Positions 1 to 21,612 of a stretch of 32,000 nucleotides of DNA are shown here, one piece after another; the stretch's first letter is position 1, and each line of letters starts with the position of its first letter. This DNA comes from Candidatus Iainarchaeum sp. GTDB taxonomy: Archaea > Iainarchaeota > Iainarchaeia > Iainarchaeales > CSSED10-239. The notes beneath the pieces were generated by a model. It did no database searches and was not told where the DNA came from. It was given only the letters and a program-made list of their open reading frames with translations. The position numbers and the translations under genes are program-made. The stretch covers positions 4,841 to 36,840 of the forward strand of contig JAQVTI010000009.1 in NCBI GenBank assembly GCA_028700115.1, read 5' to 3'.

Positions 1-44
1 GGATCTTTGAAGCATGGGTTGAATCCAGTGATTTGTAGATTTAA

Positions 45-296
45 ATGAAAAAAATTATTTTTAATAATAGAGAATATTGGTATAGGCAAGAAAAAGAAGA
101 TGTTTATATCTTATTTGAAAAAACTAACTATTTTTATCTTGTAAATATGATTATTATTGATGTAATAGAGTATTTAGCTAATAATAAAAGTTTATTAGAG
201 ATTACAGAAATTATTAATAAAAAATATCATATTAATATAACTGTAGATTTTTTAGTCACAAAATTAAAAAATATTGAGGGTATTATTAATGAGTAA
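45..296 (+). CDS. PqqD-like (RRE-type) small peptide-binding protein, putative
   Basis: 83-aa ORF. Strand-like segment EKEDVYILFEKTNYFYLVN followed by helical IIDVIEYLANNKSLLEITEIINKKY resembles PqqD/RRE chaperones. Its stop overlaps the ATG (289) of the next radical SAM/SPASM gene. Confidence 0.5.
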   Translation: MKKIIFNNREYWYRQEKEDVYILFEKTNYFYLVNMIIIDVIEYLANNKSLLEITEIINKKYHINITVDFLVTKLKNIEGIINE

Positions 297-1278
297 CTAT
301 TTTAGAACCCCTTTATTTCCTAGTATTGATCTTAGTACAAAATGTAATCTTAGTTGTATTCATTGTAGAAATAACAAAAATAAAATAAGTAAAATTCCTT
401 TTAAAAAAGTTATAGAACTATTAGATGAATTTGAATCTTTGGAAGTATTTCATTTAGCTTTTGCTGGTGGAGAACCATTTTTATTTCCTAAAATTTATGA
501 TGTATTAGAATATAGTCAAAAATTAAATGTGCCCAAGGTGACTATCGTAACTAATTGTACATTTATAAATAAAGATAGAATTGATAAATTAGATAATAAT
601 AAAATTAGGTTTGCTGTTAGTTTAGATGGACCAAAAGAAATACACAACTTTATTAGAAATGCAGATGTATTTGATAAAGTAATAGATAATATTAAATATT
701 TAGTTTCAAAAGGTTTTTTTGTTATGCTAAATTGTACTTTAATGAAATATAATTATAAATATTTCGATGAGATTATCAAAATTGCTAAAAATTTAAAAGT
801 TAATCAAATTAATTTTTCAAAAGTATTTCCTGTACATTCTGAGATTATTAAATTTATGCTTTCAAAAGAAGAATTAGATGAGTTATATGAAAACTATAGA
901 AAATATTCTGGTGAAGATAGTTTAGTTATATTCTTAGATAAAGGGTATATGGGTTTTCCTGATGCATATGATTCTGATATTGCATTTTCTATGGGTTGTA
1001 GAGCGGGTATTTCTCAAATAAATGTAATGTCGGATGGTTCTGTTGTAGGTTGTAAATTATTACCGGATGTTTGTGCTGGAAATATTTATAAAAATACAAT
1101 TAAAGAAATATGGGATGATAATAATAATTGGAAGTTATTCCGAAATGTTATACAAAATATTAATAGTGATACTTGTAAAAAATGTGATTATTTTTATGCT
1201 TGTAAAGGTGGATGTAGAGCATTTGCTTATTATATGACTGGAGATATAAATGGTAAGGATCCTTTATGTCCACTATAA
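289..1278 (+). CDS. radical SAM enzyme with C-terminal SPASM domain (PqqE/MftC/AlbA-like class)
   Basis: CNLSCIHC (CX3CX2C) near the N-terminus, plus GGEPF and VSLDGP motifs. C-terminal CKKCDYFYACKGGC (CX2CX5CX3C) with additional upstream Cys. ATG 289 preferred over the TTG 274 of the ORF track. Confidence 0.85.
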   Translation: MSNYFRTPLFPSIDLSTKCNLSCIHCRNNKNKISKIPFKKVIELLDEFESLEVFHLAFAGGEPFLFPKIYDVLEYSQKLNVPKVTIVTNCTFINKDRIDKLDNNKIRFAVSLDGPKEIHNFIRNADVFDKVIDNIKYLVSKGFFVMLNCTLMKYNYKYFDEIIKIAKNLKVNQINFSKVFPVHSEIIKFMLSKEELDELYENYRKYSGEDSLVIFLDKGYMGFPDAYDSDIAFSMGCRAGISQINVMSDGSVVGCKLLPDVCAGNIYKNTIKEIWDDNNNWKLFRNVIQNINSDTCKKCDYFYACKGGCRAFAYYMTGDINGKDPLCPL

Positions 1279-2907
1279 ATGATTACTATGAAAACTATTA
1301 GTGAGATAATTATAGAATTTATTAAATTTTTAAAAATTGATACTATATTTGGAATTCCTGGTTCTAATCTAGATTTTTTAAAGTATTTGTCAGAAGATAA
1401 AGTAATAAAATTTATTGTAAATAAAGATGAAAAAAATTCGCCTTATATGGCTATGGGGTATACTAAATCATCTAATAAAATTAGTTGTTGTTTTGGTAGT
1501 GTAGGTGCAGGAGTTTTTAATTTAATTCCTGGCACAATATCTGCTTATTATGAATCTGTTCCTTTATTAATAATCGGTGGGCAGACTAATTTAAAAAATA
1601 AAGGTAAAAATACTTTTCAAGAGGCCTCTGGATGTGCTAGAAGTGTAAGTCAGTTAAATGAATTTAAAAAAATAACTTTGTACAATTGTATTTTAAATGA
1701 AAAAAAATTGTTCCAACAATTAGAAAAAGTATTTTTTAGTTTAAATGATTTTAGATCTGGTCCGGTATATATTGAATTTCCATCAGAACTTATGAATTTA
1801 AAAATTAATTTTAATAAAAAAATATTTTGTAATATGAAAATTAATTTTAATAGATATAGATTAGATAAAATTAAATTATATGATGAATCAAAAAAAGTTA
1901 ATCAATTAATTATTGATTTAAATAAATCTAAAAAACCAGTTATATTAATTGGTAATGGTGTTAAAGATTCAAAAGAAATTATTAAATTATCATCTAAATT
2001 TAGAATTCCTATTTTTTCTACATTTAAAGGAAAAGATAGGGTTACAAATAATTTTAAGTATTATATGGGTTGTTTAGGATTAATTGGTAGTTCTATTGGT
2101 AATAATTATTTTAAAGAAAGTGATTTGTTAATATCTATTGGATCTAGTTTAAGTCAGTTTACTACGGATAATTGGAAATTAATTGATAATAAAAATATTT
2201 ATAGAATAGACACTATTAATGATGATATAACCAAACATAAGGGGATTGTAATTAAATCAGATTATTCTGATGTTTTTAAAAAACTTTTAAGTTCTGATTA
2301 CAAAGGAAATAATAATATTGTTGAATTAAAACAAAGTATTGATAATGAATTAAATAAATTTAATAGCCCTAAAATAAATTTAATAAGAAAATTAAGGACT
2401 AGTTTATCAAAAGACTCTATAATAGTTACTGAAGATATTTTTTTAATTGGTAAGTATTTTAAATTTTATAAAAATGATATTAATTTAAATTTTACAAATA
2501 TTGCTCCTATTGGGTGTGCCTTATCTGGAGGCATAGGGGCTCAAATAGCAAATTCTAAAAAAAAAGTTATTGTAATTTTGGGGGATGGAGGATTTAACAT
2601 GAATATTTCTGAATTAAATACAATTATGAATTATAAAATCCCTTTAAAAATTATATTAATTAATAATAATGGTTATGGTATAGTGTATAAATCACAAATA
2701 CATAAATTTAAAAATAATTTTTATACTCAATTTAAAAATCCAGATTATTTTAAATTAAGTCAATCATACAATTTTACTGCATATAATATAAATAATGTTT
2801 TTAAATTATCATTAAAAAAACTTAAAAAAATAATTAATTCAAATAAAACGGAATTAATAAATGTAAAAGTAGATATTGACGAAAAAATAGGAATTAAAAT
2901 ATATTAA
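1279..2907 (+). CDS. thiamine-diphosphate-dependent enzyme, acetolactate-synthase-like three-domain architecture
   Basis: 542 aa. N-terminal GIPGSNLDF region and C-terminal ThDP-binding motif GDGGFNMNISELNT...ILINNNGYG. The ATG directly abuts the upstream stop. Confidence 0.8.
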   Translation: MITMKTISEIIIEFIKFLKIDTIFGIPGSNLDFLKYLSEDKVIKFIVNKDEKNSPYMAMGYTKSSNKISCCFGSVGAGVFNLIPGTISAYYESVPLLIIGGQTNLKNKGKNTFQEASGCARSVSQLNEFKKITLYNCILNEKKLFQQLEKVFFSLNDFRSGPVYIEFPSELMNLKINFNKKIFCNMKINFNRYRLDKIKLYDESKKVNQLIIDLNKSKKPVILIGNGVKDSKEIIKLSSKFRIPIFSTFKGKDRVTNNFKYYMGCLGLIGSSIGNNYFKESDLLISIGSSLSQFTTDNWKLIDNKNIYRIDTINDDITKHKGIVIKSDYSDVFKKLLSSDYKGNNNIVELKQSIDNELNKFNSPKINLIRKLRTSLSKDSIIVTEDIFLIGKYFKFYKNDINLNFTNIAPIGCALSGGIGAQIANSKKKVIVILGDGGFNMNISELNTIMNYKIPLKIILINNNGYGIVYKSQIHKFKNNFYTQFKNPDYFKLSQSYNFTAYNINNVFKLSLKKLKKIINSNKTELINVKVDIDEKIGIKIY

Positions 2908-2919
2908 ATAAGTGATTTT

Positions 2920-3234
2920 ATGAAATATGGTATTGAGTATATAGTTAAAAAAGATTTCTTAGGTACTATTAAAATTATAAAGAATAGATCTGATTTTAAT
3001 AAAGTTAATGAAAATGATATTATTTTATTATTAAACACAAGTCCTGATGTTATTTTGTTATTTAATAAAATTAAAGGTGTTATTATTGAAATAGGAGGCC
3101 AAACATCACATTTAACAATTATTGCAAGAGAGAGTAATATGCCTCTAATTAGATTAAATAACGCTAAAGAAATAATTACAGATGGCGATTTTGTAAAAGT
3201 AGTTGAGGGTAATATTTATGTTAATGAAAATTGA
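2920..3234 (+). CDS. stand-alone PEP-utilizing-enzyme mobile (phosphohistidine swivel) domain protein
   Basis: 104 aa. DIILLLNTSPDVILLFNKIKGVIIEIGGQTSHLTIIARESNMPLI matches the GGxTSHaAIvARexgiP signature around the catalytic His of PEP synthase/PPDK/Enzyme I swivel domains. Confidence 0.8.
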   Translation: MKYGIEYIVKKDFLGTIKIIKNRSDFNKVNENDIILLLNTSPDVILLFNKIKGVIIEIGGQTSHLTIIARESNMPLIRLNNAKEIITDGDFVKVVEGNIYVNEN

Positions 3235-4225
3235 GGTTCTTTGTAAAAAGATAGCTAAAGATATATCTATAATACAAAAAGGAGGGGCAATTGAAACTCA
3301 GTGGCCTTTTTTAACTTCAGAAGTAGAAAACTATATTGGTGTTGATTTTATCAAACATTTAAGTAATATATTAGATGAAGCTTTATTAAACAATAATATA
3401 ACACAAATTGCTACTAAATTGAAATACCCTTCAATGATAACTCAATATATTGCTTTGATTCATAGTGCAAATGTATTACCTCTTAATAAAAGAATTGAAT
3501 TAATAACTAATTTAATAAGTATAATAGAAGAATTAAGAATGGACTATTTATGTAATAAAGGTATTAATATATTGCAAAATTTTGATATTAGTAAATTTTT
3601 ATCTAATGATATTAAACAAGATATTATTCCTCAAAAGATATCTAGTATTTTATATGCTTATACTGAAAAATTATATCCTACTTTAATGCGTTTGTCATTT
3701 GAACATCATGGTCCATATATTTTTAATAAAAAAAAATATGTTGTAAAAGAATATTTTAATCTTAAAAATCAATATTCAAATATGTTTCCTGTTTTTAACT
3801 ATGATAATGTTAAAATAATTCAAGAAATAGAAGGAGATTTTAATGTTGATTTTTTTGGGCATTCAATAGGAGATTATAAAATAGTTAATTCGATTTTAGT
3901 TGTAGATAATGAAATAATTAGTGACACAAATAAATTTTTAGAAGAAATATTAATTAATTTTATTAATTTAGATAAGTTATTTTTAGAATATACTGTTGAA
4001 GATTATGCTAAAAATTTAACAAATGGATTGTTTTATTCTTTAAAACCATTAACTACTTTAATTAATAAAGATTGGGTTCCATCTAAAAATATAATTGCTA
4101 AATTAAATGGGTTTAAATTATTTTTTCCTAGAGATAAAATTATTAATTATATAAAGTCTACAGATATAAATGAAATAGAATTTAAAGTGTACTTAAGTTT
4201 TAAAAATATTTTTATTAAAGATTAA
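3218..4225 (+). CDS. hypothetical protein, family X (paralog of 18112..18993)
   Basis: ATG 3218 (or 3224) overlaps the upstream stop. Shares N-terminal CKKIAKD...WPF and central FFGH motifs with the locus-B ORF. No known family recognised by eye. Confidence 0.6.
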   Translation: MLMKIEVLCKKIAKDISIIQKGGAIETQWPFLTSEVENYIGVDFIKHLSNILDEALLNNNITQIATKLKYPSMITQYIALIHSANVLPLNKRIELITNLISIIEELRMDYLCNKGINILQNFDISKFLSNDIKQDIIPQKISSILYAYTEKLYPTLMRLSFEHHGPYIFNKKKYVVKEYFNLKNQYSNMFPVFNYDNVKIIQEIEGDFNVDFFGHSIGDYKIVNSILVVDNEIISDTNKFLEEILINFINLDKLFLEYTVEDYAKNLTNGLFYSLKPLTTLINKDWVPSKNIIAKLNGFKLFFPRDKIINYIKSTDINEIEFKVYLSFKNIFIKD

Positions 4226-4227
4226 TT

Positions 4228-5076
4228 ATGAAATATGAAATTCATTTTAATTATAAATGTAATCAAAATTGTATTTTTTGTAGTGTATTACAACATCCTC
4301 AAAGAGATCTAGAATTAAGTGATTTAGATCTAATTTTACCTTTTATTCATAATAATCAAATTGTTCAAATTAGTGGAGGAGAGCCTTTATTAAATACAAA
4401 TTTGATTAAATGGGTAAAAGAAATTAAAAAAAAAACTAGATTTATTTCTTTAACTACTAATGGCACTTTATTAAATAAAGATAATTTAAATGAATTAATT
4501 AATTTAGGTGTAAATTGTTTTATTATTTCATTACATAGTAATACTATTAATAATTTTAAGAAAATAACTACAACTGATAACTTTAATAATGTAATAAATT
4601 GTTTAGAATTATTTAAAAAAATAAATAATAGTAGCATAAAAGTAATAGTTAATACCGTTATTACAAAATATAATATTTCTGAAATTTTCGATTTATTTAA
4701 AATGTTACATGAAAAATATGGTTTTGCTAAAATAAAATTATCTTATCCTAGATTTTATAAATTTGCAAAATCTGATTTTAATTGTAAAATTCATTTATTG
4801 TCATTAACAGATGTTCATTTCTTTTTAAAAGATATAATTAATAAACCTTATTTTGATAAACTTATTATAGAAAATATTCCTTCATGTATAATTAAACCTA
4901 GTAAAGAATATAGAGACTGGTCTACTAAACTTTTAACAGTAGATGGAATAAAAGATAGTGTAGATAACACGAGATATTATATGAAAAAATGTGTTACTTG
5001 TAATTTAAGATTAAATTGTCAAGGATTTCACAAATATTATAATTATTATTTTGACGATTATATTTTGGAAACATAA
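4228..5076 (+). CDS. radical SAM enzyme with short C-terminal Cys cluster (twitch/partial-SPASM-like)
   Basis: CNQNCIFC, SGGEPLL and TTNGTLL motifs. C-terminal CVTCNLRLNC. Starts 3 nt after the upstream stop. Confidence 0.8.
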   Translation: MKYEIHFNYKCNQNCIFCSVLQHPQRDLELSDLDLILPFIHNNQIVQISGGEPLLNTNLIKWVKEIKKKTRFISLTTNGTLLNKDNLNELINLGVNCFIISLHSNTINNFKKITTTDNFNNVINCLELFKKINNSSIKVIVNTVITKYNISEIFDLFKMLHEKYGFAKIKLSYPRFYKFAKSDFNCKIHLLSLTDVHFFLKDIINKPYFDKLIIENIPSCIIKPSKEYRDWSTKLLTVDGIKDSVDNTRYYMKKCVTCNLRLNCQGFHKYYNYYFDDYILET

Positions 5077-5128
5077 TTGTTTAGATAGATTTATTAATTT
5101 GTAATTATATATATTTATAGTGTTGTAT

Positions 5129-5848
5129 ATGTTTAAAGGAAATATTTCAACTAATTTAAAATTTACAAATAAATTAGATAGATTAAAAAAAGAAACTATA
5201 GCTTCTAAAAAAATTACTTTTGCAAGTTATCCAAAAAAAGAAGTTGCAATTAAGTATGTTGATGCTTTTTGGAAAAGATATTTTGATGGAAGCTTAGAAA
5301 AATCTTTATCTAAAAGAAAAGATAACCATTTTATTTCTAATTATAATCCAAATGTAAAAATTTTTCCTATTTCTCCTACAGTTTCTGTAACTGTAAGAAA
5401 AATGAATTTAATAGATGTAAGACCTTATTTCGAAATTCATAAATATTATAAAGAAAAATTTAAAAATGCAAATTTTAAATATTCTAAATTTGTTTTAACA
5501 GATATAATAGATTATAAGAAAAAAGGGGATTTTTATTATGTTCTTGAAAGAATAGTTCCTTCTATTAGTGTATATGATTTTTATGTGTCAGATTTTAAGG
5601 GTTTTAAAGAAAATAGATTTTCTAAATCTTTTCAGAAAAGTTTAGAAAAAGTGGATTTATTAAAGATGAAAGAAGATTTAGGTCCAGCATTAAATGAATT
5701 AAAACATTTTATTAATAATAATTCTAAATTTAAATTTAGACTTGATAATTCTAATAATAATATTATTATAATTGATTATAATCCAGAAACACATAAATTT
5801 AAATTTGGATTAATTGATTTTGCTGGTATGAGTTCTAAAAGTTTTTAA
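5129..5848 (+). CDS. protein-kinase-like fold protein, putative (RIO/Kdo-kinase-like)
   Basis: VAIK lysine motif, LDNSNNNIIII catalytic-loop-like segment and IDFAG (DFG-like) motif. ATG 5129 preferred over GTG 5120. Confidence 0.45.
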   Translation: MFKGNISTNLKFTNKLDRLKKETIASKKITFASYPKKEVAIKYVDAFWKRYFDGSLEKSLSKRKDNHFISNYNPNVKIFPISPTVSVTVRKMNLIDVRPYFEIHKYYKEKFKNANFKYSKFVLTDIIDYKKKGDFYYVLERIVPSISVYDFYVSDFKGFKENRFSKSFQKSLEKVDLLKMKEDLGPALNELKHFINNNSKFKFRLDNSNNNIIIIDYNPETHKFKFGLIDFAGMSSKSF

Positions 5849-5952: not shown

Positions 5953-7107
5953 ATGAATTACAAAAATTTTAATCCTTTACTTTTTTTAATGTCTTTAGGT
6001 GCTGGGGGTATTTCAATTATTCCTTTTGCGTTTTTACAATATACTTTTTTTAGTTCAAAAGGACTTGTTACTTTATCTGATGTATTAAGTTCAAGTTTAA
6101 GTATGTCTCAATTAGTTTTATTTAATTTTTTATTTATAGTTATGATTGTTTTTGGATTACTTCATTTAATTTTAAGTGTTATATTAATAAAACATTTAAT
6201 TAAATGGATAAAAGAAGGAAGATATAAAGAAATGTTAAATAATCCTTTAAAAAACTCTGCTCTTTTAGCTCCATTTATTTCTATTATAATGACTTTAAAT
6301 GTATTTATTGGTCCTATTAGATTTTTTATAAACCCTATTTCAAATAATCTTCAAAGTTTAATGATTTATGCATTAATCTTTTGGGGTTTAATATGGTTAT
6401 TTTTAATGTATTTAGATTTAAAGTTAATATCTATATCTTTTTTAAAAGATTTTGATGTTTCTAAAATAAATTTCGGATGGCTTTTACATTCTTTTGCATT
6501 AGGTATGGCTTCTGTAACTGGTTCTGGAATTGCAGCTTTATCTCAAAATATTTTAATTGCACACATTGCTGCATTCTTATCAACAATTTCTTTAAGTTTA
6601 GGTTTATTTTTATTAATAGTAAAACTAATAACTTTATTTAAATTCCATTTTGAATCAAAAGGATTACCTGATAAGCAATTTTTACCTAGTTTTTTAATAG
6701 TTATTCCAAATGTAACTTTATTTGCAATAACTTTATTTAGATTAGGTCATTATTTAGAACATGCTTTTTCATTTTCATTAGGAGCTTATTTTTTAGTAGT
6801 TATTCTTTTAAGCTTTGTATTTGAAATCTGGTATTTTGGTTTTTCTTTATTTTTACTTAAAGATTATTTTAAAAAACACTTTTTTAAAAAAGAATTCTAT
6901 ATATCTCAATGGGGGCTTGTTTGTCCAGTTGTAGCTTTTGCTGTTTTGGGTAGTTTTTTATATAAAGTATTTGTTCCTAATATAATATTATATATTGTAA
7001 TAATAGTAGTTTTAATTATTTCAGTTGTTTTGTTTTTTATACTTTTTATAAGACAATTAAAATGTAGTAATTTTTTAAAAAGTAAAAGTTTTATATGTAA
7101 GAATTAG
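5953..7107 (+). CDS. polytopic integral membrane protein (about 10 hydrophobic segments), putative transporter
   Basis: 384-aa ORF made of repeated 20-25-aa hydrophobic stretches. AGGTGA lies 7 nt before the ATG. Family not recognised with confidence. Confidence 0.7.
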   Translation: MNYKNFNPLLFLMSLGAGGISIIPFAFLQYTFFSSKGLVTLSDVLSSSLSMSQLVLFNFLFIVMIVFGLLHLILSVILIKHLIKWIKEGRYKEMLNNPLKNSALLAPFISIIMTLNVFIGPIRFFINPISNNLQSLMIYALIFWGLIWLFLMYLDLKLISISFLKDFDVSKINFGWLLHSFALGMASVTGSGIAALSQNILIAHIAAFLSTISLSLGLFLLIVKLITLFKFHFESKGLPDKQFLPSFLIVIPNVTLFAITLFRLGHYLEHAFSFSLGAYFLVVILLSFVFEIWYFGFSLFLLKDYFKKHFFKKEFYISQWGLVCPVVAFAVLGSFLYKVFVPNIILYIVIIVVLIISVVLFFILFIRQLKCSNFLKSKSFICKN

Positions 7108-9485: not shown

Positions 9486-10907
9486 TTATTTCTTCTTTGT
9501 GAAAAATTCAATAGCAACTTCTAGTTCTTTATGTGTTTTTGCATATTCTTCAATTGAAATTCCTTTTTTATATGCCTCACATGCCTGAACTAAAGCCATT
9601 GCTCCTTCTTTTGTACCATTTGGATGAGCATGACAACCTGCACCCATAGTTGTAATAAAGTCAACTCCACCCATAACATCAATAAATGGTTTTAATAAAG
9701 TAGGGTTAAGTCCTCCTGAAACAATAGGTGTACATTTTTTTACACCTCTCCATTCATCTTCATCTAAGATAGCTTTGTGTGCATGATCTTTTTCTACATT
9801 TTCAATAAAATCTAAATCTTTTTCAGATATTTTACCCCAAGATTGATCAAAGAAAAATCCTTTTCCATATAAATCTAATATGTTTTTAGCAGCAGTGATG
9901 TCTGATTTAGGAGTTCCATCCATTTTTCCAACTCCAGCAGTTCCTGTATGTATCCCAGAAGCTCCTGCAAGTCTTGCAAATTTAGATAAAACTAAAACTG
10001 AAAATCCAAAATCATTTTCTGGTCTTGTAAAAGCACCGTGAGCTGCTCTATGGAAATGTATAAAAACATCAGGATATCTTCTTCTTAGAGTTTGAACAGC
10101 CATCCATCCTGCAGTAATCCCATCTATTAAAAATGCATATGAACCTTTTTCAAATCCTGCATTTTCAATCATTTCACATCTTTTAATCATTGTGTCAAAA
10201 TCTGCAGCTGAAACATTAAAAGAGTGTACTTTTTTCTTTCCAGTCTCTTTTACTGCCTTTTCCATTGCGTTTTTTACATGTTTTACCATTTTATCGTATG
10301 GACAGAAGTCTTGGTCTGCTTGAGGCTCATCGTTTTTAACAAAGTCTCCTCCACCAACCCAGAAGTCATAACAAACTTCTGCATATTCTGCTGAAGTTAG
10401 TCCCATTTTTGGCTTTACAATTGTTCCTAGAATAGGTCTATTATAAACATCTAAGTATTTTCTCATATCATCAATTGTGTATGATGGTCCATCAAATTGT
10501 TCTAGCATAGAAGGAGGAAACCATAAGTCTAAAAGTTTAAGAGCAGAAACTTCTTTCATACCTAAAACATTTCCTACAATGTAAGTTAGTATATTTTGTA
10601 CATTTCCAACTCTATCAAAAAGTCTCCATGGATATGCAATCCATACAAGTTCTTTTTCTTGATCTAAGTCATAAACTAAAGCATTCATTTCTCTTGAGAA
10701 TGCAGTTTCTGTTTGTACTTTAAAATTAGTCCCAGTTGAAGACTCAGCTGCAATTTCTGCTGCTGCTTGTAAGACATTTAGTCCTTTACCTTCTTTCATT
10801 CTAAAAACACAAAGAAGATATTCTCCATTTTTTGTGTTTGGTATATTAAAATTAACATAGGCTTTTTGTTTTTCATTTAAAGTTTCATATAATTCATTTT
10901 TATTCAT
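9486..10907 (-). CDS. rbcL: RuBisCO large subunit, form II/III-like
   Basis: GGGDFVKNDEPQ (carbamyl-Lys motif in the KNDE variant of form II and II/III enzymes), HFHRAAHG, GIHTGT and VSGGLNP. No small-subunit gene nearby. Confidence 0.9.
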   Translation of the reverse strand: MNKNELYETLNEKQKAYVNFNIPNTKNGEYLLCVFRMKEGKGLNVLQAAAEIAAESSTGTNFKVQTETAFSREMNALVYDLDQEKELVWIAYPWRLFDRVGNVQNILTYIVGNVLGMKEVSALKLLDLWFPPSMLEQFDGPSYTIDDMRKYLDVYNRPILGTIVKPKMGLTSAEYAEVCYDFWVGGGDFVKNDEPQADQDFCPYDKMVKHVKNAMEKAVKETGKKKVHSFNVSAADFDTMIKRCEMIENAGFEKGSYAFLIDGITAGWMAVQTLRRRYPDVFIHFHRAAHGAFTRPENDFGFSVLVLSKFARLAGASGIHTGTAGVGKMDGTPKSDITAAKNILDLYGKGFFFDQSWGKISEKDLDFIENVEKDHAHKAILDEDEWRGVKKCTPIVSGGLNPTLLKPFIDVMGGVDFITTMGAGCHAHPNGTKEGAMALVQACEAYKKGISIEEYAKTHKELEVAIEFFTKKK

Positions 10908-13044: not shown

Positions 13045-14304
13045 ATGGATAAAGATTATTTAGAAAGAATAATTTTAGATCAGTCTGAAGATCTTAAACA
13101 AATAGATTTAGGTTTACCTAGAGATAAACTTTTAGATTTAGATACTCAAATTAAATCAAAAATAAATATAATAATTACAGGTGTTAGGCGTTGTGGTAAA
13201 TCTACTTTATTATTACAAATAATGAATAAATATTATAAAAATAAATTTTATTATTTAAGATTTGCAGATGAAAGACTTTCAGATATAAAAATAGATGATT
13301 ATCAAAAAATATATGAAATATTTCAATCAAATTTTAATATGAATAATATATTTTTTTTTGATGAAATACAAGGTAAACCTAATTGGGATAAATTTGTTAA
13401 TAGATTGTATGAAACTGGAAATAAATTTTATATAACTGGATCAAATTCAGAATTATTAAGTAAAGAAATATCTACTTATCTTACAGGAAGACATTTAGAT
13501 GTTGAATTATATCCTTTTTCTTTTAAAGAATATTTAAATTTTAAAAAGATTAATTTAGATTATAGATATTCAAAAAATTTAATAAAAATAGAAAAAGAAC
13601 TAAATAACTATATAAAAATAGGTGGTTTTCCACAAGTTGTTGTTGAAAATAATTTAGTATTACTTGAAGAAATATATGAAGATATAATTAATAAAGATAT
13701 TTTATTAAGATATAATTTAAATGATGTAGCTATTTTTAAAAAAATAGCATTATTTTTAATATCAAATATATCAAAAGAATTTTCATATAATTCTATTAAG
13801 AAAATGTACGATATAGGTAATTCTGATACTGTTAGAAATTATGTTTATTATCTTAAAAATGCTTATTTATTATTTGAATTACCTAAATATGACTATTCTT
13901 TGAAAAAACAAGAAAGTTATTCTAAAAAGATTTATGCTATAGATACTGGTTTAATAAATAAGTTGGCTTTTTCTTTTTCTGAGAATATAGGTCGGCTTTA
14001 TGAAAATTTAGTTTTTATAGAATTAAAAAGAAGAAATAAAAGGATATATTTTTGGAAAGATAAATCTAATTATGAAATAGATTTTATAATTTTAGAAAAA
14101 AATAAAGTGACTTCTTTAATACAAGTTGTATATGATTTAAGTGATTTAAAAACAAAAGAAAGAGAAATAAGAGGCTTAATTTCTGGTTTAAAAGAATTTA
14201 AGCTTAAAGAAGGTATAATAATTACAAAAGATTTAGACAAAAAAGAAAAAATAGATAATTTAACTATAAAATATATACCTTTATGGAAATGGTTATTAGA
14301 ATAA
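13045..14304 (+). CDS. AAA+ ATPase with DUF4143-type C-terminal domain (COG1373-like)
   Basis: Walker A GVRRCGKST and Walker B FFFDEIQ. Length and C-terminal layout are typical of this family. Confidence 0.85.
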   Translation: MDKDYLERIILDQSEDLKQIDLGLPRDKLLDLDTQIKSKINIIITGVRRCGKSTLLLQIMNKYYKNKFYYLRFADERLSDIKIDDYQKIYEIFQSNFNMNNIFFFDEIQGKPNWDKFVNRLYETGNKFYITGSNSELLSKEISTYLTGRHLDVELYPFSFKEYLNFKKINLDYRYSKNLIKIEKELNNYIKIGGFPQVVVENNLVLLEEIYEDIINKDILLRYNLNDVAIFKKIALFLISNISKEFSYNSIKKMYDIGNSDTVRNYVYYLKNAYLLFELPKYDYSLKKQESYSKKIYAIDTGLINKLAFSFSENIGRLYENLVFIELKRRNKRIYFWKDKSNYEIDFIILEKNKVTSLIQVVYDLSDLKTKEREIRGLISGLKEFKLKEGIIITKDLDKKEKIDNLTIKYIPLWKWLLE

Positions 14305-14549: not shown

Positions 14550-15842
14550 ATGTTAGATATAAAATATATCAGAGAATATCCTGATAAAGTAAAAGAAAAC
14601 CTAGAAAAGAAAAATAGATCAGATAAGTCCTTTTTAGTTGATGATATTTTAAAATTAGATGAAGATTATAGAGCTTTAATAAAAATTGTAAATGATTTAA
14701 AACATCAAAGAAATAAAATTACAGAAAACATAAAACAAGAAAAAATAAAAGGAAATGATACTTCTGATTTAATCTTAGAAGCAAAAGAACTTCCTGGTAA
14801 AATAAAAGAAAAAGACGAAGAATTAAAAGCTCTAAAACTAGAACTTCTAAAATTACAAAACCAAATACCAAACATAGTAAGTCCAGAGACACCTTTAGGA
14901 AAAGATGAATCTGAAAACAAAGAGATTGAAATGTATGGTGAGATTGTAAAAAAAGATTTTAAAATAAAGCATCATGGTGAAATTTTAGAAAAACTAAATG
15001 TTTTAGATCTAGATTCAGCTAGAGAAAACTCAGGAAAGGGATTTTATTATTTAAAAGGAGATTTAGCTCTTTTAAATAATGCACTTATTAGATATGCACA
15101 AGATATCTTTGCAAAAAAAGGATATACATTTATCTTACCTCCTTTAATGATAAATAAACAAGCATGTGATGGTGTTATTGATTTTGAGTTTTTTAGAGAT
15201 ATGGTTTATAAGATAGAAAATGAAGACTTATATCTAATAGGTACATCAGAACATCCATTAATTGCAATGTTTATAAATAAAGTTATTCCTGAAGAAAACT
15301 TGCCTATTAAGCTATATGGATTTTCAAGTTGTTTTAGAAAAGAAATAGGTGCTCATGGACTTGATGAGAGAGGGCTTTTTAGACTTCATCAATTTGATAA
15401 GGTTGAACAAGTTGTAATCTGTAAGCCAGATGAATCTATTCAAATATTTGATGAACTTAAAAACAATACTGTAGATTTATTTAAATCTCTAGGGCTTCCT
15501 ACAAGGGTTTTAGAACTTTGTACAGGAGATTTAGGAGATCATAAGTATAGACAAGTAGATATTGAAGTTTTTTCACCTAGAAAAAATGACTTTATTGAAG
15601 TAGGTTCTTGTTCAAACTTAACAGAAGCTCAAGCAATTGGTCTAAATATTAAGGTAAAAAACAAACAATCTGAAAAATACTATGCACATACACTAAATAA
15701 CACTGGAATTGCAACACAAAGAGCACTTGTTGCAATTGTAGAAAACTTTCAAACAGAAAAAGGAACAATTAAGGTTCCAGATGTTTTAGTGCCTTATATG
15801 TATGGAAAAGAAGAGATAGAAGTTAATCCTTCTTTCTTTTAA
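14550..15842 (+). CDS. serS: seryl-tRNA synthetase
   Basis: N-terminal coiled-coil arm. Class II core motifs FRKEIGAHG, GLFRLHQFDKVEQ and TLNNTGIATQRALVAIVENFQ. GGAGG lies 8 nt before the ATG. Confidence 0.95.
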   Translation: MLDIKYIREYPDKVKENLEKKNRSDKSFLVDDILKLDEDYRALIKIVNDLKHQRNKITENIKQEKIKGNDTSDLILEAKELPGKIKEKDEELKALKLELLKLQNQIPNIVSPETPLGKDESENKEIEMYGEIVKKDFKIKHHGEILEKLNVLDLDSARENSGKGFYYLKGDLALLNNALIRYAQDIFAKKGYTFILPPLMINKQACDGVIDFEFFRDMVYKIENEDLYLIGTSEHPLIAMFINKVIPEENLPIKLYGFSSCFRKEIGAHGLDERGLFRLHQFDKVEQVVICKPDESIQIFDELKNNTVDLFKSLGLPTRVLELCTGDLGDHKYRQVDIEVFSPRKNDFIEVGSCSNLTEAQAIGLNIKVKNKQSEKYYAHTLNNTGIATQRALVAIVENFQTEKGTIKVPDVLVPYMYGKEEIEVNPSFF

Positions 15843-16415: not shown

Positions 16416-17345
16416 TTATTGTTGTTTATTATAAACTTTAACTATTTTTTTATAAAATTTACACATTTCCATAAATTGATTAGGATTTGTCTTTTCTAAA
16501 AATTTGCACCCTCCTTTACAGTAATTCCATATTTCGCAATTTTTATTTAAACATATATTAATATTATTTATTTTTTTTAGATTATATTTTTTATACATTG
16601 TTAATAAATGACATCTATCATAACTACCATCTGGAAATATTCCATAAGTTGTATTTTCATAATAACCACAAAATTTATTTTTATTTAATTTATTATCTAA
16701 ATAATTAAAAAAATAATTTGAAAATGGGGATATTTTTATATTTTTTTTATGAAGTGAAAGTATGTATTCTATATCTTTAATAGTTATTCTTTTTATAGAA
16801 TTTATATTGGAAAAATTAAATCCTATGTAATTTGGATTTAATTTTAATAAATTAATTATATTCTTTTTAAAATTAATTTTTGTAGATATTGTGGATGATA
16901 TTTGTAATTGTATCCCTCCTTTTTTAATTAATTTAGCATTTGTTATAAGTTTTTTTATATTGGTTGATCTATTTTTTAAATTAGTTTCAATAGGGTCAAT
17001 ACTTATAGTTATATTTTTAATACCCCAATTTTTAAGTTTTTTAATTGTATTTTTGTTAATTAAAGTTCCATTTGTAATTATATTAAAATTGTAAATACCT
17101 AGTAATTTTAATCTTATTATAATTTTTTTAATGTTTTTTAAGTCTAATAAAGGTTCTCCACCATAAAAAATAATTGTAGAATCCGATCTATATTTTTTTG
17201 GAACTAATAAGTTAATAGAATTTATAATATTATTTATGTCAAATGCATTTTTTTTATTTAATAAATTAATTTTTTTTAAATAACAATATTTACAATTTAA
17301 GTTACAATTATATGTAGTTATTATAAATAATTTATATTTTTTCAT
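16416..17345 (-). CDS. radical SAM enzyme with SPASM-like C-terminus
   Basis: CNLNCKYC, YGGEPLL and ITNGTLI motifs. C-terminal CLNKNCEIWNYCKGGC. 4-nt overlap with the upstream gene. Confidence 0.8.
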   Translation of the reverse strand: MKKYKLFIITTYNCNLNCKYCYLKKINLLNKKNAFDINNIINSINLLVPKKYRSDSTIIFYGGEPLLDLKNIKKIIIRLKLLGIYNFNIITNGTLINKNTIKKLKNWGIKNITISIDPIETNLKNRSTNIKKLITNAKLIKKGGIQLQISSTISTKINFKKNIINLLKLNPNYIGFNFSNINSIKRITIKDIEYILSLHKKNIKISPFSNYFFNYLDNKLNKNKFCGYYENTTYGIFPDGSYDRCHLLTMYKKYNLKKINNINICLNKNCEIWNYCKGGCKFLEKTNPNQFMEMCKFYKKIVKVYNKQQ

Positions 17346-17779
17346 AATTCTTCTAAAATATTAATGGTTTTTTCTAAATTATAATTTATAAATAAATTAT
17401 CTCTTTTATTTTTATAATTTTTTATTAATTTATTTATATTATCGTTAATTAATATTGGATCACAATTTAGAAATAATAATTTTTTACAGTTATTATAAAA
17501 ATATGTGGTTAACAATAAATTATCTAGTATGTTATAATTTATTTTAACAAAAGTATTTACCGATAAAGGATAAATTAAAATTAAATTTGGTTTTGGAATT
17601 GAATTAATATTACTCCATTCTATTTTTCTATTTTTTAAAAATTTGAATTTATTTAAATTAAATAAATTATATGAATTATTTGAAATACAATAATATACTT
17701 TATTTTTTTTAAGGATATTGTTAATTTTATCTAAATTCAATATATTTTGACCAGCACAAACTAAAACATATATAATCAT
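17342..17779 (-). CDS. divergent flavoprotein-family (HFCD/EpiD/Dfp-N-like) homolog, putative
   Basis: LILIYPLSVNTFVKINYNILDNLLLT aligns by eye with the (P)ASANT..KiAnGiaDnLLt core of the Flavoprotein family. The N-terminal IIYVLVCAGQN strand-loop is degenerate. Confidence 0.4.
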   Translation of the reverse strand: MIIYVLVCAGQNILNLDKINNILKKNKVYYCISNNSYNLFNLNKFKFLKNRKIEWSNINSIPKPNLILIYPLSVNTFVKINYNILDNLLLTTYFYNNCKKLLFLNCDPILINDNINKLIKNYKNKRDNLFINYNLEKTINILEEL

Positions 17780-18108
17780 AAATTATCAATTGTAATGGTT
17801 TTTTTATTAAAATCAATTATTAATTTTTTATTATTTTTAAACAAATTTATATTATCTACTTTTATTAAAAATATTTTTTTTTCTCTAGCAAATATACTCA
17901 TGTGACTTAAATAACTTCCATTTTCAATAATTCCCCCTAATGAATAAAGTAAATATGGAGAATCCATAGGGGTTAGGGATTTAGAAATTAGAATTTTATC
18001 TTTAATTTTATTTAAATTTGTATTATTTTTTAAAATCAAAGATTTTCCAGAAATTATTTTTGTCATATTAGATTTACTTAATATTTCAAATTTAATTTTA
18101 TTTATCAT
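17776..18108 (-). CDS. stand-alone PEP-utilizing-enzyme mobile (swivel) domain protein, divergent
   Basis: ILISKSLTPMDSPYLLYSLGGIIENGSYLSHMSIFAREKKIFLI keeps the spacing and the SH...AR core of the swivel-domain His motif. Confidence 0.7.
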   Translation of the reverse strand: MINKIKFEILSKSNMTKIISGKSLILKNNTNLNKIKDKILISKSLTPMDSPYLLYSLGGIIENGSYLSHMSIFAREKKIFLIKVDNINLFKNNKKLIIDFNKKTITIDNL

Positions 18109-18111
18109 TTA

Positions 18112-18993
18112 TTATTCCTCTAAAAGATATTTTATGAAGTTATGTGTATTTTTAATTACTTTTGTTTTATTTTCAATAAATATACTTGCATCTTTATCAG
18201 TATCTACATTTAAATATTTGTTTACATCTAAAATATATTTATTTTTTAAATTAATATGAGTTGTGAATTGGTTATAAACATAATTAACTTTATCTTTATT
18301 TAATTTTAATTTTATATTTTTTTTAAGATTTATTAAATGTAGTGATAATTCATTTATTAATTTATTTGGATTTATGGTTTTATTATTTTTCATAATTAAA
18401 AAATCATTTATTTCTTCTACTTTAAATATATGTCCAAAAAAGCTAATATCTGGTTTTTTTATATAATTACTTATTAAAATATATTTTTGATTATTAATAT
18501 TATATTCTCTATATAATTTCCCATTAAATGTGTATATGTTAAATCCAACTCCTCTAAAAATTGGAAAATAAATTTCATTTAAATTATCTAATAAAAATAC
18601 TGTAGAATAATATAATTCTCTATTTTTAATAAATCTACCTAATTTTAAGTCTTTATTTGGATTTAATTTTAAATCCATTGTTTTTTCTAATGTTATGTCT
18701 TCATATTTATCAATTAAATAAGTTATTATTTTTTTAAAATATTTTTTTTGTGTAATTTTATTTGTTTTTTTATTTATTAACATTAGTAAATATGATCTTA
18801 ATTCAAAAAAAGAAATATTTGATATATTATTATCAATATAATCTTTAAGATATGGTGTGAAATTTTCTGCGAATATATTAGAAATTATGGTTGATGATAA
18901 TGGCCAATTATGAATTGTAGAACCAGATATACATAGATAAAACATATCTTTACTTATTTTATTACAAATTTTATTTATTAATTTCTTTTCCAT
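18112..18993 (-). CDS. hypothetical protein, family X (paralog of 3218..4225)
   Basis: ATG 18993 (MEKKLINKICNKISKD...) preferred, 1 nt after the upstream stop. Shares C(N/K)KI(S/A)KD...WP(L/F) and FFGH motifs with the locus-A ORF. Confidence 0.6.
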   Translation of the reverse strand: MEKKLINKICNKISKDMFYLCISGSTIHNWPLSSTIISNIFAENFTPYLKDYIDNNISNISFFELRSYLLMLINKKTNKITQKKYFKKIITYLIDKYEDITLEKTMDLKLNPNKDLKLGRFIKNRELYYSTVFLLDNLNEIYFPIFRGVGFNIYTFNGKLYREYNINNQKYILISNYIKKPDISFFGHIFKVEEINDFLIMKNNKTINPNKLINELSLHLINLKKNIKLKLNKDKVNYVYNQFTTHINLKNKYILDVNKYLNVDTDKDASIFIENKTKVIKNTHNFIKYLLEE

Positions 18994-18994
18994 G

Positions 18995-19561
18995 TTATTC
19001 TGCCTTATATTTAAGTAATATATATTTATTTTCTTTAAAATAAATTTCAACACCAATATTTATTAAATCTATTGCCCTTATAGGTAATAAATTTTCACAT
19101 AAAATTTTATTTTTGTAATTATTAGATAAATTTTGCCAATAATTATTTATAAATTTATTATATTCTAAATTACTTAATTTTTTCTTAATTTTATTTAGGA
19201 TTTCAGTTTCTTTTTTTTTATTAATTGAAATTATATGATAAAAAATACCTTTGTCTTTTAATAATGATTTACATTTTTTAATAAATTTTATGCCATTATT
19301 TTTGAAATATATATCATTAAATAAATTTACTGAATATATTATATCATATTTTGTTTTATTAAAATTATATTTTAAAAAATCTGATTTTATATAATGTATT
19401 TTTTTTGTTTTTAAATTATTTATTTGAATTAAATCTAATAAAGTTATTTTATGGCCTTTATTTAATAATTTTAAATAGTTTTTATTGTTATTAACCCCTA
19501 TTTCTAATATATTTAAATTTAAAGTACTTGAAATATCATTATATATAATATCATATAACAT
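18995..19561 (-). CDS. class I SAM-dependent methyltransferase, putative
   Basis: Degenerate motif I ILEIGVNNN, an acidic residue after beta-2 (TLLD), YDIIYSVNLF and LLKDKGIFY are in the order expected for Rossmann methyltransferases. Confidence 0.5.
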   Translation of the reverse strand: MLYDIIYNDISSTLNLNILEIGVNNNKNYLKLLNKGHKITLLDLIQINNLKTKKIHYIKSDFLKYNFNKTKYDIIYSVNLFNDIYFKNNGIKFIKKCKSLLKDKGIFYHIISINKKKETEILNKIKKKLSNLEYNKFINNYWQNLSNNYKNKILCENLLPIRAIDLINIGVEIYFKENKYILLKYKAE

Positions 19562-20696
19562 ATTTATCTTTTATTTTTATGATTTTGTTAAATAATTTAT
19601 TGGTTACCGTACATAAAGGATCTGATCCTAAAAGTTCTTGTGCATAGATACAACCTCCATATCTTGCACACAAAGAATTATTTTTCAAATAACAATTTTT
19701 ACAATCGTTTATTTTATAAGAATTATATAATTTGTTTTTTATATTATATATTTCTTTTAAATCATTAATAAACTTTATATTTCCTAATTTATGTTTTTCT
19801 AAACCTACAAATCTATTACATAAGTAAATGTCTCCATTATTATTAATACCTAACATATTATCTTTAGTAATACAACTAGTAGTAAATCTACAATTAGGTA
19901 AAGGCATATTAAAAAAAATAGCATCAATATAACTATCAAAATCTTTTATAGTAATTTTTTTATTTTCTAAATAATAGTTAAAACAATCGTATAAGAATTG
20001 CACATATTTATTAACTAAATTATTATCTACAATATTTTTTCCTCTTCCTACTGGATACATTAAATTTATTTGTAAATCTACATTTAAATTATTATAAAAA
20101 TCTATGTAATTTATAGGTTTTATTTTGTTTACAGTAAAATTATTTAATGTAGATAATACATTAAATTTATTCTTATTTTTTTTAAGTATATTAATACCTC
20201 TTATAACTTGATTAAAAGAACTAAAATCATTTTTATTAACTCTATATTTGTCATTAATAAATTTTGGTCCATCTAAACTTACCCCTATAGCAAAATTATT
20301 TTTTTTAAAAAATTTAGAATAATCTTCATCTATTAAAGTTCCATTTGTTTGAATTTTATTTACAAAATGAATATTTTTTGGGAATATATCTTTTTGTAAA
20401 TCAATTATATTTTTATAAAAATCTAACCCAGCTAAAAGTGGTTCTCCTCCATGCCAGGCATATTCTAAAGTTAGAAATCGCGGATTATATTTTTTGACTT
20501 TATTTATATCTTTTTTAGAATATATTGAATTTATATAATCTAAATTTTTATAAAATTCATTAATAGTTAAATTAAATATTTTTTTAATTACATCTATAGA
20601 TATTAAATCATATTTTTGATTGTATGAACCGTATGTATAACAATATTTACAATTTAAATTGCATGCATTTCCAACAGGTCTTATTGAATATCCCAT
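19551..20696 (-). CDS. radical SAM/SPASM enzyme (anSME / peptide-maturase-like)
   Basis: CNLNCKYCY at residues 12-20, WHGGEPLL, IQTNGTLI and VSLDGP motifs. C-terminal Cys-rich CKNCYLKNNSLCARYGGC plus upstream Cys. Confidence 0.85.
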   Translation of the reverse strand: MGYSIRPVGNACNLNCKYCYTYGSYNQKYDLISIDVIKKIFNLTINEFYKNLDYINSIYSKKDINKVKKYNPRFLTLEYAWHGGEPLLAGLDFYKNIIDLQKDIFPKNIHFVNKIQTNGTLIDEDYSKFFKKNNFAIGVSLDGPKFINDKYRVNKNDFSSFNQVIRGINILKKNKNKFNVLSTLNNFTVNKIKPINYIDFYNNLNVDLQINLMYPVGRGKNIVDNNLVNKYVQFLYDCFNYYLENKKITIKDFDSYIDAIFFNMPLPNCRFTTSCITKDNMLGINNNGDIYLCNRFVGLEKHKLGNIKFINDLKEIYNIKNKLYNSYKINDCKNCYLKNNSLCARYGGCIYAQELLGSDPLCTVTNKLFNKIIKIKDKYVI

Positions 20697-20704
20697 ATTA
20701 TTTT

Positions 20705-20851
20705 TTAATATCCATCTACATATTCATCAGCACCGTGTGCTGTTTTTCTAACTAAATCAAAATAGATATTGTCTTTATCTAATTTATTTTTTTTAAGTAA
20801 TTCATAATTTTTAAACCTACATTTTATTGCATTTGATTCAATTTTAGCCAT
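20705..20851 (-). CDS. 48-aa leading small ORF, candidate precursor peptide (absent from ORF track)
   Basis: Hand translation: MAKIESNAIKCRFKNYELLKKNKLDKDNIYFDLVRKTAHGADEYVDGY. AGGAGG lies 9 nt upstream of the ATG. The stop is 8 nt before the radical SAM/SPASM ATG. It is the first gene of the locus-B operon. Confidence 0.45.
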   Translation of the reverse strand: MAKIESNAIKCRFKNYELLKKNKLDKDNIYFDLVRKTAHGADEYVDGY

Positions 20852-20934: not shown

Positions 20935-21612
20935 TTTTTTAGTTTCTGGATCATTATAAAAATCAGAAACACAAAGGCAGATATTATTAATTTAGTTAGA
21001 GTAGAAACACCTGAAATACCAGAACCTGCTTTAAGGGAATCAATATTAAATGCAATGATTCATAGAAATTATTTTATTCAAGGAAGAATATTAATAGAAA
21101 TTTATGAAAATAGAGTGGAAATATTAAATCCTGGAAAACTATTATTTGATCCAAAAGAATTTGGTAAAGTAAGTGTTTCAAGAAATCCTATATTAGCAGA
21201 TTGTATATTAAGAACTAGTTTGATAGAAAAGATAGGTTCTGGTGTTAAAAGAATTAGAAAATTAGTTCCAAATGTTAAGTTTAATATAGATACAGATTGG
21301 TTTAGTGTTATATTTAAAAGAGATATATCTACTAAAGTGGATAGTAAAGTAAGTGTGGATGCCGGTATAAATGCACCTGTAAATGCACCTGTAAATGCAC
21401 CTGTAAATGCACCTGTAAAATTAAATAATTTACAATTAAACATTATAACAGAAATACGAAAAAATAAAAATATAACTTATGATGATTTAAGTAATATATT
21501 TTCTATACATAGAACTACAATTATGAGAAATATTTCTAAATTAAAGAAATCAGGAATATTAGAAAGAATTGGATCTGATAAAACAGGATTTTGGAAAGTA
21601 AATAAAATTTAA
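20935..21612 (+). pseudogene. 5'-truncated remnant of a RecG-like (HATPase_c_4 + C-terminal wHTH) putative transcriptional regulator
   Basis: The frame is open from 20935 with no start until M at 21055. ALRESILNAMIHRNY...NPG...SRNPILADCILRTSLIEKIGSGVKRI matches the C-terminal half of this family. The N-terminal AlbA_2-type half is missing. Confidence 0.6.
21369..21416 (+). repeat. perfect 12-bp x4 tandem repeat (aaatgcacctgt) encoding (NAPV)4
   Basis: Read directly. Lies in the linker before the C-terminal wHTH of the truncated regulator. Confidence 0.95.

Follow-up and report, generated by a model that had tools for sequence, protein, structure and literature searches.

What can a protein that consists of nothing but a phosphohistidine swivel domain accomplish, and what is the protein encoded beside it? 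The question is raised twice by one stretch of DNA, a very AT-rich 32-kb segment of Candidatus Iainarchaeum sp. (contig JAQVTI010000009.1; 'the window' hereafter, always meaning the whole stretch), which contains two gene clusters, locus A on the plus strand and locus B on the minus strand, both of which are radical S-adenosylmethionine (rSAM)/SPASM peptide-modification clusters of a DPANN archaeon. Proteins encoded in the window match those of 'Candidatus ainarchaeum sp.' metagenome-assembled genomes (MAGs) identically or nearly so. An earlier note on the window had drawn attention to two swivel-only proteins of ~105 residues (swivel A and swivel B), each next to one of a pair of paralogous proteins (X-A and X-B, members of what we call family X), and had proposed that X is a new phosphoryl donor or acceptor domain. 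His-swivel dikinases are textbook examples of domain-swivel catalysis: in phosphoenolpyruvate (PEP) synthase (PpsA), pyruvate phosphate dikinase (PPDK) and rifampin phosphotransferase (RPH) the swivel His receives a pyrophosphoryl group from ATP, Pi is lost, and the resulting His~P is carried to a second site. We consider it reasonably probable that X provides this second site. It would then bind the second substrate, the phosphate acceptor, within a His-swivel dikinase made of three parts, in which an ATP-grasp protein loads the swivel in trans and which probably acts on a peptide or a peptide derivative.

Both swivel proteins carry the hallmark of the dikinases, namely PF00391 with its catalytic His in a loop of the G-G-x-x-x-H type. 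Swivel A matches PF00391 with an E-value of 1.4e-13 (50.7 bits, the cut-off being 23.1) and contains the motif GGQTSH, with its His codon at 3109–3111; swivel B matches with an E-value of 4.7e-8 (33 bits) and contains GSYLSH (His codon 17904–17902), reading GS in the place of GG. A Pfam scan of either protein returned PF00391 and no further domain, so that the description of the two as swivel-only, with the motifs and catalytic His quoted for them, is confirmed. The His of swivel A aligns onto the catalytic His of solved PEP synthases and of RPH. Within a set of 31 unique swivels associated with X, the His is kept in every one, and the Gly before it and the Arg-Glu after it are invariant or nearly so. 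This conservation bears on one alternative, in which the pair has lost phosphate transfer altogether, the swivel being structural or regulatory and X having an unrelated function. Some bacterial pyruvate kinases offer a parallel in their PEP-utilizer-like extra C-terminal domain, and swivel A does match models of that domain (NF004978, E 1.6e-10; PDB 2e28), while some of the positions conserved elsewhere have degenerated in X-B and swivel B (such as the GS before the His). Given the near-invariance of the His and its surroundings, however, and given that fusion to a complete ATP-grasp domain (see below) makes sense only for phosphotransfer, we regard such a loss as very improbable.

The position of X was read from its relatives. 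Forty-three loci were gathered, the open reading frames (ORFs) in them being classed with hidden Markov models (HMMs) built for this analysis, and 28 distinct X groups (no more than 90% identity between groups) form the base for the locus counts given here. The swivel gene overlaps or abuts X (gap of 4 nt or less) in 25 of the 28; in one decayed locus with a split X ORF (L023) it lies 436 nt from X, and in two it is fused to X, the swivel and X being distinct ORFs in 26. X is thus a partner of the swivel, as the earlier note had supposed, and the gene orders reported there were also found, with swivel then X in locus A (17-nt overlap) and X then swivel in locus B (3-nt gap, minus strand). Natural X–swivel fusions, which it had proposed to look for, do exist: two independent proteins, P0073 (796 residues) and P0135 (769 residues, on several contigs), read PPDK_N–swivel–X, PPDK_N being the ATP-grasp domain. 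In P0073 the PPDK_N region occupies residues 49–289, the swivel 323–392 and X 466–763, and the X regions of the two proteins are matched with E-values of 3.9e-59 and 5e-51 by an HMM built without them. NCBIfam PEP synthase models cover both proteins at model positions ~95–470 of 798 only, below the cut-off. Since the match to PEP synthase extends over the ATP-grasp and swivel alone, these are PEP-synthase-like enzymes with X in the place of the PEP/pyruvate TIM barrel.

In addition, a separate PPDK_N protein of 313–350 residues is encoded beside swivel and X in L001/2, L003–7, L013, L017 and L025, in varying arrangements; L013 has a PPDK_N–swivel–X operon and, in all, two swivel–X pairs with one PPDK_N. 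Relatives have an ordinary PPDK_N either beside the pair or fused upstream of it. It is therefore improbable that ATP binding or donor loading falls to X, and the separate PPDK_N argues for a three-part system with X in the acceptor position. Of the two roles first offered for X, the acceptor role is therefore the one that the fusions favour, and the ATP-binding or donor role is made less likely by the separate PPDK_N. The analogy with RPH drawn at the same time needs correction, as the fusions have the PEP synthase domain order and score best on PEP synthase models.

What kind of protein, then, is X? X-A and X-B are 23% identical across 242 residues (E 4e-6), and an HMM of the wider family matches them with E-values of 7.9e-81 and 1.8e-30, respectively. 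The motifs by which they had been recognized as paralogs (CxKIxKD...WP and FFGH) are both found in their alignment; they fall in different subfamilies, and for this reason are not a recent duplication. Neither protein gave anything in Pfam or NCBIfam at E ≤ 1e-1, a Pfam scan of 83 family members gave no credible match, and the family profile found nothing among PDB sequences. Word-index protein searches, with X-A or with the 83-sequence alignment, returned just three to four relatives, and the family came to light only when 1.84 billion representatives were searched exhaustively with a profile (151 proteins at E ≤ 1e-3, 50 of them at E ≤ 1e-10). Genome matches are almost all from DPANN archaea (Pacearchaeota, Nanoarchaeota, Micrarchaeota and Iainarchaeum). 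No relatives were found in viral contigs, and a viral origin of X was rejected on that ground; a reading as a defence system was dropped too, PADLOC giving no match for X or swivel and the small rSAM proteins having just generic viperin-like similarity.

An AlphaFold (AF2) model of X-A built on the 83-sequence alignment (pLDDT 96.3, pTM 0.93, five models in agreement; an earlier run with four sequences, pLDDT 51, was discarded) predicts a bundle of helices at the N-terminus, an antiparallel sheet of four strands (residues 161–229) and C-terminal helices. Foldseek found no similar structure for this model in the PDB (best E 0.24, TM <0.2) and no match in BFVD. X is a rare but real unannotated family with an apparently new fold, as far as the predicted structure can tell. 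The absence of any ATP-grasp or TIM-barrel signature noted at the outset thus extends to Pfam, NCBIfam, the PDB profile search and Foldseek, all of them blank. A fold of this kind, unrelated to known nucleotide- or PEP-binding folds, had been named in advance, together with the lack of a predicted interface with the swivel, as a reason to doubt the proposal; it is indeed what the model has, but the fusions and the synteny in our view outweigh it.

Conserved residues within the family (X-A numbering) are W29-P30, D109, N117, E150, E162, H164-G165-P166-Y167, R/K177, D211 and K276. Strand register in the X-A model puts E162/H164 and R177/Y179 on the same face of the first β-hairpin, and we infer from this that the active site of X probably lies on the hairpin face where E150, E162, H164, R/K177 and D211 cluster. 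The near-invariant Glu, His and Asp suggest chemistry over docking alone.

Several observations weigh against an acceptor role for X in an ATP-dependent, peptide-directed system, and one of them is the patchy occurrence of the ATP-grasp partner. PPDK_N is adjacent to, near or fused with the pair in 8 of the 28 X loci (L001, L003–7, L008, L009, both L013 pairs, L017 and L025), and the other 20 have none in the sequence covered, many of these contigs being short. tblastn and Pfam found none in the window itself, and there is none in the 2.6 kb upstream of it (L028; an AAA/DUF4143-like ATPase, methyltransferase fragments and a PNP_UDP_1 protein are encoded there), nor within about 5–10 kb a side of the Pacearchaeota-type clusters L019, L040 and L041. 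Further, X-B has Asn for E162, no H-G-P-Y hairpin and Ser for D211. About 90% of the family have Glu at the E162 position; it is missing as well from the close X-B relatives P0004 (Asn) and P0014 (Gly) and retained in the rest of the short subfamily, so X-B may be impaired, inactive or working differently. An in-frame ORF joining X to the small rSAM (L021) and X loci devoid of peptide genes, both taken up below, belong to the same side of the argument.

The missing ATP-grasp could be explained if X were instead a donor module, binding PEP or another high-energy phosphate compound and using it to charge the swivel His with no ATP-grasp involved; from the swivel the phosphate would go on to a third protein or substrate, in a relay like that from Enzyme I to HPr. 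Swivel and X would be self-sufficient in genomes such as that of the window, and the many X loci with long flanks but no PPDK_N would be accounted for, as would a minimal cluster (L031) that holds only X and swivel beside an rSAM/SPASM gene. PpsA/PPDK chemistry is reversible, and a position equivalent to that of the TIM barrel can be a donor site. Such a donor would, however, make the ATP-grasp redundant in the fusions and in six further loci, and a conserved third phospho-acceptor protein beside the pair was not found. Moreover, stand-alone PPDK_N proteins of ~315 residues are extremely common in DPANN and candidate phyla radiation (CPR) genomes, with more than 7,900 matches at E ≤ 1e-20 that are about 58–74% identical to the L003 protein (L003:6383–7333), most of them about 58–62%. 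One is encoded in another Ca. ainarchaeum MAG, between S7 and elongation factor 2 (EF-2) and beside a TehB-like methyltransferase; the PPDK_N gene is at the S7/EF-2 junction in L017 and L026 (2288–3238) as well, and in L017 the PPDK_N–EF-2 junction directly follows X. This abundance makes supply in trans plausible, and since these proteins far outnumber the X family they must have other partners as well. We therefore consider a donor role for X unlikely, and loading of the swivel in trans by an ATP-grasp protein of the window genome plausible from the gene content of DPANN and CPR genomes.

The other alternative concerns the tight coupling of X to the small rSAM protein. The gene for this protein abuts or overlaps X in L019, L022, L039, L040 and L041, and in L038 the two are separated by 273 nt. 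In L021 (2099–3964) the two are in frame as one ORF of 621 residues, on one contig only; sister loci have X and small rSAM overlapping by 8–20 nt in different frames, and this single MAG contig could for that reason contain either a true fusion or a frameshift error of assembly. X might then be a non-catalytic adaptor that docks the swivel, and perhaps the precursor, onto the small rSAM or the thiamine-diphosphate (TPP) enzyme of the cluster, where the real acceptor site would be. In its N-terminal half X is built as a bundle of helices, a kind of structure often used for binding, and a PqqD-like gene is missing from the clusters of type B (locus B, L031), where peptide recognition could fall to X. 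Yet there are X loci with neither rSAM nor TPP neighbours (L001, L009, L011, L013 and L036), in the triple fusions X stands exactly at the catalytic acceptor position, and its near-invariant residues are of the kind needed for chemistry. We do not think the adaptor role a likely one.

Returning to X as acceptor module, we suggest that swivel and X belong to a His-swivel dikinase derived from PEP synthase and fully split into three parts. The third part, a PPDK_N ATP-grasp protein encoded outside the window and acting in trans, would bind ATP and pyrophosphorylate the swivel His (His64 in A, His69 in B), the terminal phosphate would leave as Pi to give His~P, and the swivel, as a free subunit and not a tethered domain, would move the phosphate to the second active site. 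There X would bind the acceptor and move the phosphoryl group onto an oxygen nucleophile. More tentatively, the acceptor in the window loci may be the precursor peptide after rSAM/SPASM processing, or a fragment of it, and phosphorylation may activate or mark the peptide for the next, coupled enzyme, which in locus A could be the small rSAM, with the TPP enzyme encoded upstream. The group phosphorylated could be the Ser of ...ESSDL, a carboxylate of Asp or Glu, an enolisable carbonyl, as it is in PpsA, or the phenol of the Tyr in ...Y-x-D-x-Y, phenylphosphate synthase being an enzyme that phosphorylates a phenol. Since X is tightly coupled to the small rSAM and TPP enzyme, the phosphorylated species would seem to be an intermediate and not the end product, and fusions of X to a HAD phosphatase, seen in two protein clusters, P0054 and P0155 (L013:1240–3015), agree with this. 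The gene ahead of the triple fusion P0135 encodes a protein (L009:3362–4225) with a faint, weakly supported match to the histidine phosphatase family PF00300. HAD fusions and such a neighbour would fit with a phospho-ester product.

The peptide setting proposed earlier is well founded, in that conserved precursor peptides occur at both loci and each lies beside an rSAM/SPASM maturase, a hallmark of ribosomally synthesized and post-translationally modified peptides (RiPPs). The window begins inside the precursor gene of locus A; on the overlapping contigs L028/L029/L030 the full gene (L028:2555–2686, L029:360–491) encodes a 43-residue peptide, MDKINQQVSQQINIDKLFVIKKLPITSKEKNGIFEAWVESSDL. Homologs in the same position in L003 and L017 (both ...LPITAREKKGIFEAWAESSDL), L019 (...KIAEFWIESD) and L022 (...KIAEFWVES...) give a core E-x-W-[VAI]-E-S, and in all four the precursor gene lies upstream of a PqqD-like gene. 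The PqqD-like protein of the window matches NCBIfam PqqD_rel_WgkC weakly (E 0.051) and has homologs with 55–57% identity in L003 and L017. L019 has in this position a 104-residue protein matching Pfam PqqD (E 4.6e-4; 20.9 bits, under the cut-off of 23.4), and between this protein and the 83-residue protein of the window no similarity was detectable. The rSAM/SPASM enzyme of locus A is found in L003, L017, L019, L022 and L025 too. Eleven of the 28 groups share a block of TPP, swivel, X and small rSAM genes, the TPP gene lying beside that of the swivel, along with an rSAM/SPASM gene and a small ORF of PqqD-like size in the vicinity; L023 is a twelfth locus with this block, in gene fragments only. 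A protein of 396–399 residues is encoded directly upstream of the TPP gene in L038 (2296–3486), L041 (4818–6017) and L043 (35–1219), Pacearchaeota-type clusters with no nearby PPDK_N; it has no Pfam, NCBIfam or PDB match.

The likely precursor of locus B has the C-terminus DEYVDGY. In the minimal cluster L031, which reads precursor–rSAM/SPASM–X (P0026, a relative of X-B)–swivel, a 54-residue ORF in the same position ends ...IYIDVADNRFQCWGQDYSDRY, and the two peptides have in common ...IY[FI]D[LV]... and a C-terminus of the form [DE]-Y-x-D-x-Y; the maturases of locus B and L031 are 35% identical. An aromatic-x-acidic triplet (W-V-E, Y-V-D, Y-S-D) is present in both precursor types. The locus B maturase matches NCBIfam models of anSME and of cyclophane-forming and DynA/DarE-type maturases (DynA among them), every one below its cut-off, and by analogy with the cyclophane-forming and DynA/DarE-type enzymes a cross-link at the triplet is a reasonable guess. 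Still, L001, L009, L011 and L036 have X and no peptide-cluster genes at all, from which it follows that the substrate is not uniformly a peptide; the substrate range of the X family is probably wider. That the acceptor in the window loci is a peptide or peptide-derived intermediate, with X as a third class of acceptor domain, we offer tentatively, as a proposal that we would not yet call probable.

The features of the two loci are collected below.

Table. Genes of loci A and B in the 32-kb window (coordinates relative to its first nucleotide)
Feature	Position	Strand	Remarks
Precursor-peptide gene A, 3' end (12 last codons + stop, GIFEAWVESSDL*)	1..38	+	Gene start upstream of window
PqqD-like protein, 83 aa, putative peptide-recognition chaperone	45..296	+	Weak NCBIfam match; homologs in L003/L017
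Radical SAM/SPASM enzyme, locus A	289..1278	+	PF04055 1.2e-21, PF13186 1.3e-8
TPP enzyme, acetolactate-synthase-like	1279..2907	+	PF02775, PF02776, PF00205; immediately 5' of swivel gene
Stand-alone swivel A, 104 aa, catalytic His64	2920..3234	+	PF00391
X-A, 335 aa, canonical X member, proposed acceptor-substrate module	3218..4225	+	No Pfam/NCBIfam/PDB match
Small radical SAM, 282 aa, HxsC/MoaA-like	4228..5076	+	PF04055 2.5e-20; 3 nt past X-A
Second radical SAM of locus B	16416..17345	-	PF04055 2.6e-19
Small flavoprotein, PF02441 family	17342..17779	-	PF02441 3.2e-5, 24 bits vs 22.7 cut-off
Stand-alone swivel B, 110 aa, His69	17776..18108	-	PF00391
X-B, 293 aa, shorter divergent X subfamily	18112..18993	-	Family HMM
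SAM-dependent methyltransferase	18995..19561	-	PF08241 3.7e-5
Radical SAM/SPASM peptide maturase, locus B	19551..20696	-	PF04055, PF13186
Candidate precursor peptide B, 48 aa, ends ...IYFDLVRKTAHGADEYVDGY	20705..20851	-	8 nt upstream of rSAM/SPASM gene

Some details may be added to these rows. The rSAM/SPASM enzyme of locus A has 329 residues as called on L028/L029, and its longest ORF begins at TTG 274. The top NCBIfam match of the TPP enzyme is acetolactate synthase, at 244 bits and far under the cut-off of 538; the HxsC match of the small rSAM spans residues 10–269 of 282 (NCBIfam). A protein near-identical to X-B is found on L015, with the same gene order, and the second rSAM of locus B has NCBIfam peptide-maturase matches that are all sub-cut-off. 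SAM methyltransferases lie repeatedly beside X, swivel or PPDK_N (L008, L018, L024, L025, L026 and window 18995–19561), those in L008, L018 and L026 being TehB/TPMT-like; the methyltransferase fragments upstream of locus A on L028 have 101 and 85 residues.

The ORF at 5120–5848 (+; 242 residues), next after the small rSAM gene, was considered as an ATP-binding partner and rejected, as Pfam, NCBIfam and PDB offer no support for such a role, other loci contain no homolog, and the same species (L027) is the only place where it occurs. Inspection by eye suggests a kinase-like look (D-x4-N … IDFAG, reading 'DNSNNN...IDFAG'), a resemblance that no tool backs. Further downstream of locus A, a TehA/SLAC1-type transporter is encoded at 5953–7107 (+) and a homolog of the RuBisCO large subunit at 9486–10907 (−; PF00016 4.8e-91), presumably of the nucleotide-salvage type known from DPANN archaea. 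A seryl-tRNA synthetase gene at 14550–15842 (+) lies about 570 nt from locus B, and in L019 (14000–15286) such a gene adjoins the cluster, which may be conserved synteny or coincidence. A truncated-looking HATPase_c_4/HTH protein at 21055–21612 (+) carries 'NAPV' four times in tandem in its linker; at 13045–14304 there is a gene for a similar ATPase, which has a DUF4143 domain and, on L028 upstream of the window, a homolog.

The second-substrate domains of His-swivel dikinases that we compared are of two kinds, the PEP/pyruvate TIM barrel and the RPH-type domain. If our reading is correct, X would be a third structural class of acceptor domain and would extend the modularity of the superfamily, and X in the acceptor position would give a new handle on phosphorylation-dependent chemistry in uncultured archaea. 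Should the acceptor indeed be a peptide, the split dikinase would also be the first PEP-synthase-type enzyme recruited into peptide maturation, in company with paired rSAM proteins and a TPP enzyme. It would represent a new ATP-dependent activation strategy in the biosynthesis of peptide natural products, and would imply that elaborate pathways of peptide modification are maintained by DPANN archaea despite their reduced genomes. With the conserved precursor motifs W-[VAI]-E-S and Y-x-D-x-Y to work from, the pathway lends itself to direct tests in vitro, and three small separate proteins would be a handy system in which to dissect swivel docking without tethers.

Finally, how do the loci compare with known systems? 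Locus A, with its short precursor, putative PqqD-like protein, rSAM/SPASM enzyme and HxsC-like small rSAM, resembles the HxsB/HxsC, pyrroloquinoline quinone (PQQ) and mycofactocin systems, but its matches are far under the family cut-offs. To our knowledge neither a swivel protein nor X nor a TPP enzyme is part of any known paired radical-SAM peptide system, and literature searches for swivel or dikinase combined with RiPP, and for the X family, found nothing relevant and nothing at all, respectively. In Enzyme I of the phosphotransferase system (PTS) a swivel His domain likewise passes phosphate from one site to a separate partner, whereas the N-terminal HPr-binding subdomain and the PEP-binding TIM barrel of Enzyme I are not detectable in swivel or X.

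Separate ATP-grasp subunits that act in trans on a swivel His are established in the characterized multi-subunit dikinases HpeHI, CreHI and phenylphosphate synthase (PpsAB), whose acceptor is a non-pyruvate phenolic hydroxyl (PMC12167813). The relatives of X share the separate ATP-grasp subunit with these enzymes, which differ in having their RPH-type substrate domain and swivel in one polypeptide, where the swivel of the window is a protein of its own; X is, moreover, unrelated to the HpeH-type domain. RPH and the PigC/RedH-type dikinases are similar in combining an ATP-grasp, a His swivel and a substrate domain other than a TIM barrel with a secondary-metabolite target, and the swivels of the window do match RPH models. 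The order in RPH is, however, ATP-grasp–substrate domain–swivel, while the fused X relatives end in X; these score above RPH on PpsA models, and Foldseek found no match between the X model and RPH structures in the PDB.

The closest likeness is thus to PEP synthase itself. The swivel domain with its catalytic His is the same, the PPDK_N protein of L003 matches the PpsA model at positions 5–339 of 798 (E 3e-100), and the fused relatives, ~770–800 residues in total, are ordered ATP-grasp–swivel–third domain. In contrast to PpsA, the parts in the window are separate proteins with no ATP-grasp among them, and the PF02896 TIM barrel is absent, X with its different predicted fold standing in its place; and the X and swivel genes of the window lie not in a setting of central metabolism but within clusters for the modification of peptides.

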